Source of the DNA: Escherichia phage 215Ecol030PP
DNA length: 64,000 nt
Strand: one strand, 5' to 3'
Sequence record: PP328843.1
Position 1 is the first letter of the stretch; each line of letters opens with the position of its first letter. A program made the position numbers and the translations under genes. Below are positions 3,867 to 50,001 of this stretch, piece by piece. The notes under the pieces are model-generated. The model made no database searches and was not told where the DNA came from. It saw nothing but the letters and a program-made list of their open reading frames with translations.

Positions 3867-4871
3867 TTAGCTCACCAATTCAATCCAAGCCGGACGAAGT
3901 ACATCTTGCACCATTTTAACTAATTCCTTTTTAATCAAAGAAGGATTATCTGCTTGAGTTAAAGTAATACCTTCACGAGAAGTTTCTTCCAAAATATCTT
4001 GAACAGTTAGTCCCATCACCTTTCCAAAATCTTTAGGACCAATTTCACCAATTTTAGAAATAACGTTATTTACTCGGTTCAGTGTAACGTAACAAGCTAA
4101 AATTCCAACCAATTTGTTATCAGCTTCTGACAGTTCAACTTTAGCTTTAATAGGCTTATCAGACTTTTTCTTTTCACTAAATTTAGAGTTCTTGCATTTG
4201 ATAGCTACGCGATTGCCATTAGGCATCCAAGAAGGATAACAAGGTTTCAATACATATCCTTCAGCGGTAAATACTTCGCCTTTTACTTCAGCATTCCAAA
4301 CGCATTTATTTGCATCAACTAATCCAGCATGGTCTACCGTAAAATTATAATCCTGGACGACAGAATCTAAATCATTTGGCAATTTAATAAGTTCTTCAAA
4401 TTTACCGCGACCTAAAAGTGGAGCCATTTTAAATTTAAATGTATTGCAGAATGATTCCATCATATAATCATCGACATAAGTCACATCACCACTTTCTGTA
4501 GTAACAATAATGTCAAATACATAAAAATCTTTATCGCCATAATCGACATTCTTCTGAATGCCAGGTCCAGCGAATTCGCCAAAAACTTGATAAGATACAA
4601 CCGCTGAAGTTTCCATAATATCTTGTACTGCTTTAATGGAATCAGCGTAATTCTTCAAAATAATTTCATACCCAAAGAAATCTTCAGCAGGAAGAATAGG
4701 ACCAGTACGTTTAGCACAAGTTGCTTTATCGCGTTCAATAATCAGTGAGAAATTTGTGCCATGAATCTTTTCACGAGCTACCCATTCGCCGCCAGTCAAT
4801 CCTAAACTATAAAGTTTTTCAATGAATTTAGAATTGTAATGATTTTCAAGACTGCTATACTTTTTAAACAT
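3867..4871 (-). CDS. rnlB: RNA ligase 2 (Rnl2)
   Basis: 334 aa; sequence recognised as T4 Rnl2 including the nucleotidyltransferase lysine motif (EKIHGTN). Confidence 0.92.
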
Positions 4872-7608: not shown

Positions 7609-9120
7609 ATGACTGACATTAAAGTACATTTTTATGATTTTAGTCACGTGAGAATTGATTGTGAAGAAAGTACATTTCATGAACTCCGTGATTTCTTTAG
7701 CTTTGAAGCTGATGGGTATCGTTTTAATCCGAAGTACAGATATGGCCACTGGGATGGACGAATCCGTCTGTTAGATTATAATCGTCTTCTTCCATTCGGC
7801 TTAGTCGGGCAAATTAAAAAGTTCTGTGATAACTTTGGCTATAAAGCCTGGATTGACCCACAAATTAACGAAAAAGAAGAATTATCAAGAAAAGATTTTG
7901 ATGAATGGCTTTCTAAATTAGAAATCTATTCAGGAAATAAAAGAATTGAACCACACTGGTATCAAAAAGATGCAGTGTTCGAAGGATTAGTTAATCGTCG
8001 TAGAATTCTTAATCTTCCAACATCCGCTGGTAAATCTTTAATTCAAGCTTTGCTTGCGCGATATTATTTGGAAAATTATGAAGGTAAAATTCTTATCATT
8101 GTTCCAACAACTGCTCTGACAACTCAGATGGCTGATGACTTCGTCGACTATCGTTTATTCAGTCATGCAATGATAAAGAAAATTGGTGGCGGAGCATCAA
8201 AAGATGATAAATATAAAAATGATGCACCGGTCGTTGTTGGTACATGGCAAACTGTAGTAAAACAACCGAAAGAATGGTTCTCACAGTTTGGAATGATGAT
8301 GAATGATGAATGTCATCTTGCTACAGGAAAAAGTATTTCATCTATCATATCAGGTTTAAATAACTGCATGTTCAAATTTGGTCTATCAGGTTCATTACGT
8401 GATGGCAAAGCCAATATCATGCAGTATGTTGGAATGTTTGGTGAAATATTTAAGCCAGTAACGACTTCTAAGTTAATGGAAGATGGACAAGTAACTGAGC
8501 TAAAAATTAATAGTATTTTTCTTCGCTATCCCGATGAGTTCACTACTAAATTAAAGGGAAAAACTTACCAAGAAGAAATAAAAATTATTACTGGGCTCAG
8601 TAAAAGAAATAAATGGATCGCTAAATTAGCTATTAAGCTTGCACAAAAAGATGAAAACGCTTTTGTCATGTTTAAACATGTATCGCATGGTAAAGCTATT
8701 TTCGATTTAATTAAAAATGAATACGATAAAGTTTATTACGTATCAGGGGAAGTTGATACCGAAACCCGCAACGTAATGAAAACCTTAGCTGAAAATGGTA
8801 AAGGAATAATTATAGTAGCTAGTTATGGTGTATTTTCTACTGGTATTTCAGTTAAAAATCTGCATCATGTTGTTTTAGCGCACGGCGTTAAATCAAAAAT
8901 CATTGTATTACAAACAATCGGTCGTGTATTACGTAAGCATGGTTCTAAAACAATCGCAACAGTCTGGGACCTCATAGATGACGCGGGCGTCAAGCCAAAA
9001 TCTGCTAATACGAAAAAGAAATATGTTCATTTGAACTATCTTTTAAAACACGGCATTGATCGTATTCAGCGCTACGCAGATGAAAAATTTAATTACGTAA
9101 TGAAAACAGTTAATTTATAA
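7609..9120 (+). CDS. uvsW: UvsW RNA-DNA and DNA helicase (SF2)
   Basis: 503 aa; Walker A (PTSAGKS) and DECH box present; matches T4 UvsW. Confidence 0.92.
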   Translation: MTDIKVHFYDFSHVRIDCEESTFHELRDFFSFEADGYRFNPKYRYGHWDGRIRLLDYNRLLPFGLVGQIKKFCDNFGYKAWIDPQINEKEELSRKDFDEWLSKLEIYSGNKRIEPHWYQKDAVFEGLVNRRRILNLPTSAGKSLIQALLARYYLENYEGKILIIVPTTALTTQMADDFVDYRLFSHAMIKKIGGGASKDDKYKNDAPVVVGTWQTVVKQPKEWFSQFGMMMNDECHLATGKSISSIISGLNNCMFKFGLSGSLRDGKANIMQYVGMFGEIFKPVTTSKLMEDGQVTELKINSIFLRYPDEFTTKLKGKTYQEEIKIITGLSKRNKWIAKLAIKLAQKDENAFVMFKHVSHGKAIFDLIKNEYDKVYYVSGEVDTETRNVMKTLAENGKGIIIVASYGVFSTGISVKNLHHVVLAHGVKSKIIVLQTIGRVLRKHGSKTIATVWDLIDDAGVKPKSANTKKKYVHLNYLLKHGIDRIQRYADEKFNYVMKTVNL

Positions 9121-9145
9121 GGGCTTCGGCCCTTTGGAGAAAAAG

Positions 9146-17644: not shown

Positions 17645-17648
17645 CAAT

Positions 17649-17666
17649 GGGGACCGAAAGGTCCCC
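17649..17666. terminator. Hairpin GGGGACC-GAAA-GGTCCCC between convergent genes
   Basis: Perfect 7-bp stem with GAAA loop followed by TATTTTTATTT. Confidence 0.55.
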
Positions 17667-17672
17667 ATATTT

Positions 17673-17963
17673 TTATTTACGGAATGAAATGAAAGCAGCA
17701 ACTGAAGCAACTAAACTGTCTTCAATATAAACTTCAATTTTTACCGGAGCTTCTGACTCAAATTTACCTGTTACTACACCCTGAAAAATACTTTCAGTCT
17801 GTTCTGGCTTTGAAAAATTTTCAGAAGGAAAAATTCCAAACTTTTTATCTGTTCCGAAAATTTTGATAAATTCATCATAAACCGCTTCGTTAAAAGCATT
17901 ATCAGCAGGAATAACGCCTTCAACTACAAGTTCTTGACCTAAAAAGCGTAAAGAAGATTTCAT
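17673..17963 (-). CDS. Hypothetical protein (alt-upstream region)
   Basis: 96-aa ORF with GAGGA SD, driven by the early promoter at 17995-18024. Confidence 0.6.
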   Translation of the reverse strand: MKSSLRFLGQELVVEGVIPADNAFNEAVYDEFIKIFGTDKKFGIFPSENFSKPEQTESIFQGVVTGKFESEAPVKIEVYIEDSLVASVAAFISFRK

Positions 17964-17994: not shown

Positions 17995-18024
17995 ACTATA
18001 ACACAACACGAGGGACTTGTAAAC
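17995..18024 (-). promoter_or_regulatory. T4-type early promoter (GTTTAC, 18-nt spacer, TATAGT)
   Basis: Minus-strand -35 GTTTAC and -10 TATAGT; part of a 53-bp repeat shared with the alc promoter. Confidence 0.55.
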
Positions 18025-18385
18025 TACATTTTGAACTTTTTAGTACGCGTAATAGGCATGCGTCGATTTTATACTGTTTCATTGTTTGAAGAGCAGTATC
18101 AAAAACAGCATTAATGACGCCAATTGGATTTCCACCCAAGTTTCTAAGCTTAACCAGTGATAATTTCTCGTTGACACCTATCATTACGATATGCATCATT
18201 TTATCGCCTGGCTTAACGTTTTTATTTGTATCACCGCCAGAGGTGTATGTACAAAATCTAAATCCAGGAAGCACGCTTTCTTCGTCGGCTTGAATAGCAA
18301 AAATTTGAGGTATTTTATGCTTAGGATTTAAGTTAACAACCGGCGCCGAAGCGCCGTCAAATAATTATGTAATAAGTTCCATGAT
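17996..18385 (-). pseudogene. Duplicated alt N-terminal segment interrupted by an in-frame TAA at codon 6
   Basis: Manual translation reads MELIT-stop-LFDGASAPVVNLNPKHKIPQIF...GFRFCTYTSGGDTNKNVKPGDKMMHIV..., colinear with Alt residues 2 to about 130; the ORF track reports only the GTG-initiated 92-aa distal part (17996-18274). Confidence 0.6.
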
Positions 18386-20443
18386 TTATCCTTGAACGAA
18401 CTTGTAAGGCATGTTTGCAATATCTATGCAAGACGCAATAATTCCAAGAGATGATTCTACTTTCTGTTTAACATTTGATGAAACAAATGATGCAAAGTCA
18501 ACTCTGTCTTCTATTTCAATATCACCTGTCATTGCAACTACTTCACCGGTTTCCATTAAACGGTCTCCGTCATAAATTACCGATTCGGTGAGTTCTTCTG
18601 TGGTCATAACTTCAGCTTGAATAAGCTTGTTGTTAGTTCTAACTGTTCCATCGTTGTAAGATGCATCGGTTATTTTATTAACTTTGACCATTAATCCACG
18701 TGGCAAAATGACTTCCATTTCATTTGAAGGCGCTAAACTTCCACCAGGTAAAACAACATTGACCTTATCAGCCCCAGTAATAACCCATCCAATTCCAACT
18801 AAATTATCGCTAGAATTTACTAGTCCTTCATCAGTTTTATCAATAGAAACACTTAGACGTTTTTCGTCTGGTAAAACACCTATAGATGAATCAGTCATCC
18901 AAGTACCAAAAATATTTGGATATAATGATGTTGACACAAAGTTTCTAAAATAAAAAACTCGATTTTTTACCATTGCTTCATATATTGAAGGTAACATTCG
19001 TTGTGAACGATACAAAGTAATACCTTTTGGTAATCGTTCACCATTTTTAAAGGCTGAATCTAAATTATCAATGGCTTGTTCTATTTCAGGTGCTGTTAAA
19101 ATACTTGTACGCTCATCTGGATTATATAATCCCAAAAGAGCATTATTTATGTCTACATATCCTGAACCTACATATTCACGAATTCCGCGTTTTTGCGCTG
19201 GCGTGTATTTAGATGAATCTTTATTTTCGACTATAGGATGTAATGACCATCCAGCGGTAAGAGCATATCCACGTAATTCTCTTCGAATAATCTTTGTTTT
19301 TATTGCATTCCAAGAATTTTGTACTAACTCATTTGCAGCATCTTGGTTTAAATGCGAATGTCTGTTAATATTTCTTTCAAACCAGGCACCTTTATATTTT
19401 TCTAAAGTATCATCGACGATAGAAGCAATAGTTTCTAAAGTTTTTATTGAAGTAATAGATTCTTTTCGTAATTTTTCTAAAGCTTTATTTTTTATTTCTG
19501 CATTAATAATGGATTCTTTATCTTCAGGAATTATAGAAGCTTCTCTGAATGCCATCCCAGCTGTAACACTGCTAAGAGCATTCTCTAGTGCAAATCCTGA
19601 AGTAGAAATTACCGTTAATTCATTAGAATCAGAAATTAAAGGCGCGTCCGCTGGTTTATTTAATTCTGCCGCTGAAGCCTCAAATTTTTGAAACATCGGT
19701 GTTTCAAATCTAGAAGATTCCAATGATTGACTTTGTGCAATTGCTCTACGGGAAATTTTAACTTTAACGATTACAGCTTGGTCAGAACGTTTATCATTTT
19801 CTTGTGCAATAGATGCTGCAATTGCCTCATTTTTAGTTACTTGAGCTCCAGTATCTTTATTGATATAAACATCACCGACCTTCGATTCAACCTTAGTAAA
19901 GAGCTCGGTACTAATTTCCGGAACTCCTGGAATGTCTTCTAGTGATACATTTTTGCGATGTATAAGAATATATGCATACTTTTTATCATAATCCCAGAGT
20001 TCCTTAAGAAGGACGTATCTGCCACCTGAACGACTACGGATAAGTCTATCAGCAATAACTTGAATTTGTCGAGCTTGACCAGCAGTTTTAGACTTAAGAA
20101 TACGAAGCATACAGGCATCAATTTTATACTGACGCATCGTCTGCATTGCAACAGTAAAAACTGAATTGATATAATTAATTGGGCTTGGACCAAGACCTTT
20201 CAATTTAGCAATTGAACCTTTAGCGGTTAATGTAAAAGGAACAATATGCATCATTTTATCGCCCATCTTTAAATCACGATTAGTGTCACCTCCAGATGTA
20301 TAGGTACATAAACGAAAGCCTGGTTGTTCAATTGCATCATCAACATGAACTGAAAAAATTTGCGGTATTTTCTTCTTTGGATTTAAGTTTGTAATCGGAA
20401 GAGTAGTATCTTCGTCAAATAATTCTGTAATTAGTTCCATCAT
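18386..20443 (-). CDS. alt: Alt, head-packaged ADP-ribosyltransferase
   Basis: 685 aa; T4 Alt length and position between 54 and 30. Confidence 0.88.
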   Translation of the reverse strand: MMELITELFDEDTTLPITNLNPKKKIPQIFSVHVDDAIEQPGFRLCTYTSGGDTNRDLKMGDKMMHIVPFTLTAKGSIAKLKGLGPSPINYINSVFTVAMQTMRQYKIDACMLRILKSKTAGQARQIQVIADRLIRSRSGGRYVLLKELWDYDKKYAYILIHRKNVSLEDIPGVPEISTELFTKVESKVGDVYINKDTGAQVTKNEAIAASIAQENDKRSDQAVIVKVKISRRAIAQSQSLESSRFETPMFQKFEASAAELNKPADAPLISDSNELTVISTSGFALENALSSVTAGMAFREASIIPEDKESIINAEIKNKALEKLRKESITSIKTLETIASIVDDTLEKYKGAWFERNINRHSHLNQDAANELVQNSWNAIKTKIIRRELRGYALTAGWSLHPIVENKDSSKYTPAQKRGIREYVGSGYVDINNALLGLYNPDERTSILTAPEIEQAIDNLDSAFKNGERLPKGITLYRSQRMLPSIYEAMVKNRVFYFRNFVSTSLYPNIFGTWMTDSSIGVLPDEKRLSVSIDKTDEGLVNSSDNLVGIGWVITGADKVNVVLPGGSLAPSNEMEVILPRGLMVKVNKITDASYNDGTVRTNNKLIQAEVMTTEELTESVIYDGDRLMETGEVVAMTGDIEIEDRVDFASFVSSNVKQKVESSLGIIASCIDIANMPYKFVQG

Positions 20444-20463: not shown

Positions 20464-20471
20464 TATTTATA
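20464..20471 (-). promoter_or_regulatory. T4-type late promoter (TATAAATA) upstream of alt
   Basis: Minus-strand TATAAATA about 20 nt upstream of the alt start. Confidence 0.5.
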
Positions 20472-20492: not shown

Positions 20493-20681
20493 TTAATAAT
20501 CTAGTGGTAAGAGAGTACGGTATATTTCAAACTTTGGACCTTTTTCATAGGCATCAAATGTTTCTGTGAATTTATTATAAGCATATGCATCTACAAATTC
20601 GAGAATGACTTGTGATACAGAAGTAGAAACATCTCCACCTTCTTTTTGAGCAATGACAATTGTTTCTAAGTAAGCTTTCAT
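20493..20681 (-). CDS. Hypothetical 62-aa protein between gene 30 and alt
   Basis: ORF overlapping the gene 30 stop (ATGA) and ending in a terminator-like hairpin. Confidence 0.5.
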   Translation of the reverse strand: MKAYLETIVIAQKEGGDVSTSVSQVILEFVDAYAYNKFTETFDAYEKGPKFEIYRTLLPLDY

Positions 20682-22141
20682 AGACCAGTTACCTCATGAA
20701 AATCACCAAATACATCTTCGAACGTATTAGCTTTAGTTTTATCTTCGCGTAAACGAATCGCAATCGGAAGAAATAATTTAACGTAATCAGTGCGGCCATC
20801 AGATTTTAACCAACCGTTGCATTCGCACTCTAGAATTTTTCCAATATAATAATTTTGGTTTTCCATAATGCGAGTACGGTCAAGTTCATGCGATTTTACA
20901 CCGGCTTTATCTTTTAAGCCTGAACCAGCATTTACTTTAATTTTTCCACACTCTGATTCAAGAATAAATCCACCTGCTTTAGTAGGGTCTTTACGGTGAG
21001 GATAAATTCCTACAATTTTTAAATCAACATCAATTACTTCTTTAAATTTATAGAGATTTTTTGAACGAGCATTTTCCCATAATCCATCGATATTTTTGAG
21101 AATAATACCTTCAAGACCTTGGTCAATATACTTTTTATAAATTACCTTAGCTTCATCTAGGTTATTTACTACTTGGTTTTCAATTAAAATTACTTTATCA
21201 TAGCCTGATGTCATTTGTTCTAGTTTAGAAAAACGTACATCATATTTCAAACGAAATGCAGGAAGACCGTATATTTCTACCAACGGAACATAGTCCCAGA
21301 CCTGAAACTTCATGCATTGAGCTTCTTTTTCAGAAATGGTTCCCTTTAAAGATTTATTAGCGATTCCATTAGAAGTAGTACGTGATTCAGCTACTTCGGC
21401 GAATTCTTTGGCTTTACTAATTTCAGGATAAGCATCAAAAAGAAAATCTAGGCCTTCTGGCTCCTTTTTAACTTGCTCATGGTATACCAATTCGCCATCA
21501 ATTAACACGCCTTCTGGATGAATCTGGCGGGCTTCAGCGGTCATTTTGATTAATTCTTCCTTAAGAAGATCTAATCCTAGATATTCATTACCGGCTCGTG
21601 ATAAAAGACGAACATCATCTAATTCATCACCTCTGACTTCGGCAAAGCACCGAGCTCCATCAGCTTTTAACTGGGCAAAGGCTGGAAATTTGATATTCTT
21701 ATTAATGCCTTTTTCATCATAAGAACTTGCAAGCATTTGAGGTTGTTCAGGAATTAAACCTGGCCAAACTTTGTTTGCAATAGATACCGAAGCACCGCAT
21801 TCAAGGTCTCGCATCATCACTCGACGCAAAACTTCAACATCATCTTTTTTACCATCGGTGATGTATCCAGTTAATTCCTCAATTGCCGCATTTCCAGTCA
21901 ATTTCCGAGTAGCTAACGTGAATTCAATGAAGTCAAGCATATCGGTAAGAGTCAACATTCCAAAACTCTGGGTAGCAATACCAGGTTTAGGCCATTTCTT
22001 GATATAATACTGCAACCCACGAGAATAAGTCAGACGATATACTCGTTTAAGCAATTCATTATCTTTATTCTTTTCAAGAATTGCTTGCTTCTGCTTAGTT
22101 GAACCAATAGATGCTATTTCGTTCAGAATTTTAAGAATCAT
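20678..22141 (-). CDS. 30: ATP-dependent DNA ligase
   Basis: 487 aa; sequence recognised as T4 DNA ligase (KADGAR adenylation motif present). Confidence 0.95.
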   Translation of the reverse strand: MILKILNEIASIGSTKQKQAILEKNKDNELLKRVYRLTYSRGLQYYIKKWPKPGIATQSFGMLTLTDMLDFIEFTLATRKLTGNAAIEELTGYITDGKKDDVEVLRRVMMRDLECGASVSIANKVWPGLIPEQPQMLASSYDEKGINKNIKFPAFAQLKADGARCFAEVRGDELDDVRLLSRAGNEYLGLDLLKEELIKMTAEARQIHPEGVLIDGELVYHEQVKKEPEGLDFLFDAYPEISKAKEFAEVAESRTTSNGIANKSLKGTISEKEAQCMKFQVWDYVPLVEIYGLPAFRLKYDVRFSKLEQMTSGYDKVILIENQVVNNLDEAKVIYKKYIDQGLEGIILKNIDGLWENARSKNLYKFKEVIDVDLKIVGIYPHRKDPTKAGGFILESECGKIKVNAGSGLKDKAGVKSHELDRTRIMENQNYYIGKILECECNGWLKSDGRTDYVKLFLPIAIRLREDKTKANTFEDVFGDFHEVTGL

Positions 22142-49970: not shown

Positions 49971-49975
49971 ACTGA

Positions 49976-49993
49976 GGGAGCCTTCGGGCTCCC
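49976..49993 (+). terminator. Hairpin GGGAGCC-TTCG-GGCTCCC followed by T-run after gene 35
   Basis: Perfect stem with UUCG loop, then TTTTTCTTT. Confidence 0.55.
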
Positions 49994-50001
49994 TTTTTCT
50001 T

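Follow-up and report, generated by a model that had tools for sequence, protein, structure and literature searches.

Immediately downstream of alt, on the same strand, Escherichia phage 215Ecol030PP carries a short stretch that opens like a second alt gene and meets a stop codon at its sixth codon. Is this a partial copy of alt that has been restarted as a small protein, or the residue of something larger, and does any part of it still serve the phage? The window analysed here is a stretch of 64,000 nucleotides (sequence record PP328843.1) from a T4-like phage of the genus Tequatrovirus. In a nucleotide database search, 901 bases spanning the remnant have matches in 503 phage records, with an identity of 95-99% in nearly all and of 97.7% in T4 itself, and the closest record over 6.5 kb of the locus is phage 235Ecol030PP (98.2%), with none identical. 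One further record, PV654520.1, is 97.7% identical over 6.5 kb and carries the name Pseudomonas phage vB_PSGBLB0006 (host P. aeruginosa ATCC 9027); a mistaken host label or a contaminated sample is possible. The order of the locus is that of T4, from the ligase gene through alt.1, alt, the remnant and alt.-3 to gene 54, and on the plus strand genes 54, 48 and 29 follow alt.-3. The part of the locus upstream of the remnant contains the following features:

20678-22141, minus strand: DNA ligase (ORF list)
20493-20681, minus strand: alt.1 (ORF list)
20464-20471, minus strand: T4 late-promoter-type motif TATAAATA, read from the sequence, 21 nt upstream of the alt ATG
18386-20443, minus strand: alt, an intact 685-aa ORF for the Alt ADP-ribosyltransferase (ORF list; annotated alt in T4T and relatives)
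18388-18386, minus strand: TAA stop codon of alt, 3 nt before the ATG of the remnant

The alt product matches the Pfam family ADPrib_exo_Tox (PF03496, E = 8e-35) over residues 375-615. Its ORF opens with two adjacent ATGs (MMELITE..., 20440-20443, minus strand) and is 685 aa long here; T4T annotates alt as 682 aa, from MELITE, and in related records the gene is annotated at 2049, 2088 or 2094 nt, so that start calls and gene length vary. The motif TATAAATA, the T4 late-promoter consensus, is the likely origin of a transcript that extends across alt and on into the remnant. In T4, both the RNA and the protein of alt are classed as late (PMC9697503).

Minus-strand translation at the remnant gives I-MELIT, a stop, LFDGASAPVVNLNPKHKIPQIFAIQADEESVLPGFRFCTYTSGGDTNKNVKPGDKMMHIVMIGVNEKLSLVKLRNLGGNPIGVINAVFDTALQTMKQYKIDACLLRVLKSSKCSLQVPRVVL and a second stop; the frame from 18385 reads I-MELIT, a stop, LFDGASAPV... 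and LKSSKCSLQVPRVVL before the final stop. The original prediction had begun this frame at 18385, and its translation holds, but the start has to be moved by three bases: the ATG occupies 18382-18380 on the minus strand, and 18385-18383 is an ATC spacer after the alt stop. With its ATG 3 nt past that stop, the remnant does sit where a tandem paralogue just downstream of alt had been proposed. Its coding features are:

18032-18382, minus strand: alt2 remnant, codons 1-117 of a second alt paralogue (BLAST against intact alt2 and Alt)
18365-18367, minus strand: nonsense TAA at codon 6, where intact alt2 and T4 have GAA (alignments)
17996-18274, minus strand: 92-aa ORF opening with GTG (ORF list), alt2 codons 37-117 plus the frame-shifted tail KCSLQVPRVVL

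The reading frame from the native start of the remnant is interrupted by the TAA at codon 6 (18367-18365), where alt has a Glu codon, as had been noticed from the sequence. When this stop is read as Glu, BLASTP aligns the remnant with the Alt protein of the window over Alt residues 2-118 with one 1-residue gap and 73/117 identities (62%, E = 4e-50), and identity at the DNA level is 65%, so the colinear homology to the Alt N-terminus claimed at the outset is borne out. T4 Alt, an NAD+--arginine ADP-ribosyltransferase packaged in the head, has the homologous N-terminal region as well, including the MELITELFD start, and is 62% identical to the remnant over 117 residues. Three PHROG families match the remnant, namely phrog_802 (Alt-like), phrog_15247 and phrog_23015, with positions 41-120 of phrog_802 matched at E = 2e-34. 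The 92-aa ORF has no Pfam match; the PF03496 catalytic domain is absent from it and falls in a deleted segment of 1699 bp.

The paralogue to which these codons belong, alt2, is intact in most tequatroviruses. PaulHMueller and 303Ecol101PP carry a complete alt2 of 685 aa in exactly this slot, and six more carriers are phage 107, Kha5h, NBG2, phiD1, Sf24 and REP1. The intact gene is annotated as Alt2 in PaulHMueller/Bas45 (bas45_0031) and as alt_2 in 303Ecol101PP, and intact Alt2 is found elsewhere in RB32 and RB14 (as "alt.-2"), in T2 and in phiD1 (g200). It opens with the same TAAATCATG junction as the remnant, has the same start context 3 nt after the alt stop and the same hairpin, and agrees with the remnant at 98% of DNA positions over the first 117 codons; against the 5' end of alt2 in PaulHMueller, nucleotide identity is 98% (378/386). 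The difference is one of length, as intact Alt2 has 685 aa with its own PF03496 domain whereas the remnant lacks codons 118 to ~680. In Alt and Alt2 alike the domain lies at residues ~375-620, and the two proteins are 41% identical overall, with the first ~235 residues much better conserved.

To judge from these alignments, the remnant is what is left of alt2, a paralogue with a full length of 685 aa, and Alt is an ancient paralogue of Alt2, not the parent copy of the remnant. Since the remnant is 98% identical to alt2 and only 65% identical to alt, the alt/alt2 duplication is old and the truncation recent. Two other origins were considered and rejected. First, the original prediction had taken the stretch as a duplicate of the alt N-terminal region only; a partial duplicate is ruled out by the complete 685-aa alt2 that fills the same slot in many tequatroviruses. 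Second, a recent duplication of alt is ruled out by the 65% DNA identity together with near-saturated third codon positions, 63/117 of which differ between the remnant and alt.

How the rest of the gene was lost can be read from its ends. Alignment of the window with intact alt2 yields two BLAST blocks with a 9-nt overlap, and the missing segment is the 1699 bp between two 9-bp CTAAAAAGT repeats, which stand at 4840 and 6539 of the fetched PaulHMueller locus in frames 0 and +1. In intact alt2 the first copy occupies codons 114-116 (CTA AAA AGT, frame 0) and the second lies 20 nt before the stop (T CTA AAA AGT T, frame +1), while the window retains a single copy:

18035-18043, minus strand: deletion junction, single surviving CTAAAAAGT copy (BLAST overlap, repeat positions)

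The deletion bears the signature of a microhomology-mediated event. Because 1699 is 3n+1, the stump misses alt2's own TAG and runs out of frame, which accounts for its non-homologous tail (AGT TCA AAA TGT AGT TTA CAA GTC CCT CGT GTT GTG TTA TAG); the terminal TAG falls within the -10 hexamer of the alt.-3 promoter. The junction is identical in 15 aligned deletion-bearing sequences (the window and 14 fetched loci), and a 91-mer across it is contiguous in 90 of the ~489 records that hold the alt2 start, both counts including RefSeq/GenBank duplicates and many T4 laboratory isolates. This 1699-bp deletion, and not the nonsense codon, is the main inactivating event.

The alt2 remnant is already known, as the T4 pseudogene alt.-1/alt.-2 (T4p199/T4p198; UniProt P39495/P39494), with which the window shares locus, junction, hairpin and promoter at 97.7% identity. 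In T4, codon 6 is GAA and the loss of 1 nt from the AAATAAAAAC run has produced two overlapping ORFs of 61 and 67 aa, whereas the window has TAA at codon 6, keeps AAATAAAAAC and has no frameshift. Notes in the T4 RefSeq and T4T records describe alt.-1/alt.-2 as a second alt copy that has been damaged, or as a duplication of that gene, Nolan et al. 2006 class them as duplicated paralogues of alt (PMC1524935), and PHROGs holds a separate family for each T4 fragment. Gene g192c of Yersinia phage fPS-2 is the same allele as that of the window (deletion plus codon-6 TAA) with the same 92-aa GTG ORF, as is likewise the case in EC128; it is annotated as "similar to N-terminal of ... Alt, putative pseudogene" and departs from the window by a few point differences, such as G33D and F111L in the window. 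Comparison with T-even counterparts, which had been proposed as a check, thus leads to the same pseudogene locus in T4 and fPS-2. The intact alt2 of Kha5h (KT184312.1) is annotated "apparent insertion in alt.-2"; its annotators used the deleted state of T4 as the reference, which inverts the likely evolutionary direction.

Phages with the deletion differ in what has happened to the stump since. AV121 and FL23 have no further lesion and an ORF of 128 aa. The window, fPS-2 and EC128 have only the codon-6 TAA in addition, T4, G2540-3 and Pu-Krd-SF5 have only the 1-nt deletion in the AAATAAAAAC run, and slur03 and ESh36 have both; one additional 1-nt deletion each is present in F25 (otherwise frameshift only) and in 235Ecol030PP (TAA plus frameshift). 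Deletion-bearing phages therefore include carriers of the TAA (nt 16), of the -1 frameshift (nt 160), of both and of neither, which implies recombination or recurrent mutation within 145 bp. The extra 1-nt deletion of F25 lies inside the CTAAAAAGT junction and restores the original C-terminal frame of alt2 (...KFKM followed by the stop).

Variants were compared between 8 intact alleles and 15 deletion-bearing sequences (the window and 14 loci) and classed by where they occur:

Intact-only variants: 3 disruptive or non-synonymous, 12 synonymous
Variants shared by both groups: 1 disruptive or non-synonymous, 20 synonymous
Remnant-only variants: 12 disruptive or non-synonymous (8 non-synonymous, 3 indels, 1 nonsense), 4 synonymous

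Remnant-only variants differ in composition from intact-only variants (Fisher's exact p = 0.004) and from all variants seen in intact alleles, with shared ones pooled with intact-only ones (p = 1e-5), and the same direction is seen within the GTG ORF (7 disruptive to 3 synonymous against 2:12 in intact alleles, p = 0.01) and within the part that corresponds to T4 alt.-2 (4:1 against 2:11, p = 0.02); the p-values serve only as indications, since the 23 genomes recombine and are non-independent. The direction of the change is nevertheless clear, a loss of constraint after the deletion. Together, the codon-6 TAA, the 1699-bp deletion and the 12:4 ratio of remnant-only changes uphold the description of the stretch as an inactivated, decaying pseudogene, and we hold with high confidence that 17996-18382 on the minus strand is a remnant of alt2 that no longer functions, alt2 itself being an old, full-length paralogue in tandem with alt.

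The history that we propose has three steps. Recombination between the CTAAAAAGT repeats, in an ancestor shared with T4, would have removed 1699 bp and with them codons 118 to ~680, including the whole catalytic domain. The stump would then have read through the last codons of alt2 into the alt.-3 promoter, ending at the TAG in its -10 box. Freed from selection, it would finally have gained different secondary lesions in each lineage, in the window the change of GAA to TAA at codon 6, after which ribosomes coupled from alt would make only MELIT. Any roles left to the region would be those of a 3' trailer of the late alt mRNA, carrying a hairpin, and of a seat for the early promoter of alt.-3 at its far end; the hairpin and promoter roles rest on position and consensus matches. 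The relevant features are:

18341-18356, minus strand: c(UUCG)g hairpin CGGCGC-UUCG-GCGCCG with a predicted 6-bp stem, starting 30 nt after the alt stop
17995-18023, minus strand: sigma-70-type early promoter of alt.-3 (promoter scan; TTTACA, 17-nt spacer, TG-extended TATAGT)
17673-17963, minus strand: alt.-3, intact, the next genuine gene, 96 aa, DUF5498 (Pfam PF17602, E = 1e-64; annotated alt.-3 in T4T)
17647-17668, both strands: bidirectional terminator hairpin with a 9-bp stem (scan; annotated terminator in fPS-2)

The original prediction had seen a GAAG-loop hairpin that replaced the segment just after the stop. On the transcribed (minus) strand the loop is a UUCG tetraloop, of which GAAG is the plus-strand complement, and no segment was replaced, as the hairpin is present unchanged at codons 9-15 of intact alt2. 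In the predicted fold the centroid structure is the hairpin alone (-12.8 kcal/mol). The window contains 11 perfect hairpins of the c(UUCG)g type, with stems 6-10 bp long, all located 0-60 nt past the stop of an ORF on the same strand (window scan):

2484-2503, 9119-9134 and 49975-49994, plus strand: c(UUCG)g hairpins
63054-63035, 62820-62803, 60154-60139 and 25295-25276, minus strand: c(UUCG)g hairpins
24413-24398, 20497-20474, 18356-18341 and 5445-5430, minus strand: c(UUCG)g hairpins

Several of these directly precede the Shine-Dalgarno sequence of the next gene, the one at 20497-20474 (minus strand) is the alt.1/alt terminator, and 18356-18341 alone corresponds to coding sequence in related phages that still have the whole of alt2. 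C(UUCG)G hairpins of T4 intercistronic regions are reportedly the subject of work by Tuerk and colleagues from 1988. The alt2 hairpin likewise has a G+C stem and a UUCG loop closed by C-G shortly past a stop codon, but, unlike those intercistronic hairpins, it was ancestrally inside the coding sequence of alt2 and has no U-tract. By position it belongs to the known gene-end class of T-even phages. The hairpin at 18356-18341 was also considered as an intrinsic terminator and ruled out, as it lacks a U-tract and was not called by the terminator scan; stabilization of the 3' end of the alt mRNA is accordingly a putative role for it.

At the far end of the stump, the promoter of alt.-3 has 10/12 consensus matches plus the TG element in the promoter scan. 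The same sequence follows the alt2 stop in phages with the intact gene. Anti-Shine-Dalgarno pairing at alt.-3 is -6.3 kcal/mol. In T4, alt.-3 is early in both RNA and protein (PMC9697503 Table S2), which fits a promoter at 18023-17995, and C-terminal extensions of T4 Alt.-3 permit escape from the CmdTAC defence system (PMC11618068). The hairpin at 17647-17668 stands between the convergent alt.-3 and gene 54 with T-runs on both sides, and this terminator is the end of the alt/remnant/alt.-3 transcription unit.

These observations raise the possibility that the stump is kept as regulatory DNA or RNA, with the hairpin protecting the 3' end of the alt mRNA and the spacing or promoter needed for alt.-3, and that only its coding function is dead. 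This is not a true rival to the pseudogene and concerns ~45 of 390 nt, and we consider it possible but somewhat doubtful. It would fit the position of all 11 hairpins within 60 nt of a same-strand stop, a right-hand deletion endpoint just short of the alt.-3 promoter, the early expression of alt.-3 in T4 and the preservation of the 66-nt stretch that bears the hairpin, which is 95-100% identical in 485/489 records and 90-95% identical in the other 4. That conservation is, however, inseparable from recent common ancestry and offers no covariation to examine, the hairpin has neither a U-run nor a call in the terminator scan, and its 101-nt context folds no better than shuffled sequences (z = -0.41).

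A second alternative is that the loss of Alt2 was itself adaptive, with the deletion allele spread by recombination through about one fifth of sequenced tequatroviruses, T4 included, and the stump retained. Retention may then reflect a need for the hairpin and promoter, or for a small fragment of the Alt2 N-domain made from an internal ATG. We regard adaptive loss as improbable. If it did occur, it could remove an injected ADP-ribosyltransferase that is sensed by host defence, or could alter the expression of alt and alt.-3.

What may be translated from the pseudogene depends first on its native start, where anti-Shine-Dalgarno pairing is -5.2 kcal/mol; the neighbouring genes alt, alt.1, alt.-3 and ligase range from -5.2 to -6.9 kcal/mol. 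With this fair Shine-Dalgarno sequence and a start that abuts the alt stop, the pentapeptide MELIT is probably made. The original prediction had suggested a restart at the GTG at 18274. In its fuller form, this alternative has translation of the truncated frame resume at GTG 18274 or ATG 18199, giving an Alt N-domain fragment of 67-92 aa, a decoy or competitor in Alt packaging or at host targets. The 92-aa ORF does exist and is annotated by gene callers in fPS-2 and EC128, and the 67-aa version (T4 alt.-2) forms a PHROG family of its own, phrog_15247. The ORF from the downstream ATG (MMHIV..., codons 62-117) is closed in only one aligned sequence with the deletion, which leaves a slight chance of a small product. 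Against this, neither start has a usable Shine-Dalgarno sequence: pairing is -1.0 kcal/mol at the GTG, weaker than the background mean of -1.7, and -3.4 kcal/mol at the ATG. Translational coupling is also absent, as upstream translation ends at least 90 nt before either start; in T4 the frameshift makes alt.-1 and alt.-2 overlap at ATGA, which could couple translation of the second to that of the first, whereas the window has no such coupling. The fragment would lack the N-terminal MELITE targeting or cleavage segment and would end partway through the conserved N-terminal region, which reaches about residue 235 in Alt and Alt2. Disruptive changes accumulate in the GTG ORF among related phages, as the 7:3 ratio given above indicates, and 235Ecol030PP has an additional frameshift within it. 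In T4, transcripts of Alt.-1 and Alt.-2 were detected (classed as middle) and neither protein was found by time-resolved proteomics (PMC9697503 Table S2), a non-detection that is weak evidence, as proteomics easily misses small proteins. A MotA-box middle promoter around the GTG (TGCTTC) was considered by eye and rejected, as its spacing to any -10 element does not fit. The 92-aa ORF is thus probably not translated, and we judge the restart very unlikely.

A capsid-targeting or decoy peptide had been suggested as well. T4 capsid-targeted proteins have an N-terminal targeting segment that is joined to the cargo and ends in an L/I-x-E protease site. In the window the Glu codon of I-T-E is the TAA, and the downstream ORFs lack the N-terminus; because the stop at residue 6 leaves only MELIT from the native start, such a peptide is implausible. 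A further alternative is readthrough of the TAA, by suppression or recoding, to yield a 128-aa peptide with a capsid-targeting N-terminus for packaging into heads. The fair Shine-Dalgarno sequence at a start 3 nt past the alt stop and the uninterrupted 128-aa ORF of AV121 and FL23 would agree with this proposal, but there is no evident recoding signal, a TAA with T after it terminates efficiently, slur03, ESh36 and 235Ecol030PP join the TAA to a frameshift and are beyond rescue by readthrough, and the pattern of lesions is as neutral decay predicts. Readthrough is therefore extremely improbable. Recurrence in independent genomes refutes the idea that an intact gene was missequenced or misassembled, at the stop codon or throughout, the outcome on which the original prediction would have fallen: the exact 66-mer containing the TAA recurs in 43 of ~489 records from many laboratories (with the same duplicates and T4 isolates counted) and the junction in 90, including many independent T4 sequences.

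Reading the stretch as the decaying stump of alt2 has a direct consequence for annotation: the 92-aa ORF and T4 alt.-1/alt.-2 should be labelled as alt2 pseudogene fragments, and not as hypothetical proteins or as "ADP-ribosyltransferase". The locus has little value for discovery and is a textbook example of how a gene decays in a model family of phages; what is established here, namely exactly where the deletion ends, how the stump reads out of frame into the alt.-3 promoter and which secondary lesions it has gained, refines a known story. For the enzyme that was lost, a literature search on Alt2 as a phage ADP-ribosyltransferase found no paper on a second Alt enzyme, and when Alt was searched by sequence against the PDB, distant ADP-ribosyltransferase domains of toxins were the sole matches, with none for the N-terminal region. 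T4 itself represents the derived state, and most of its relatives have two Alt enzymes.
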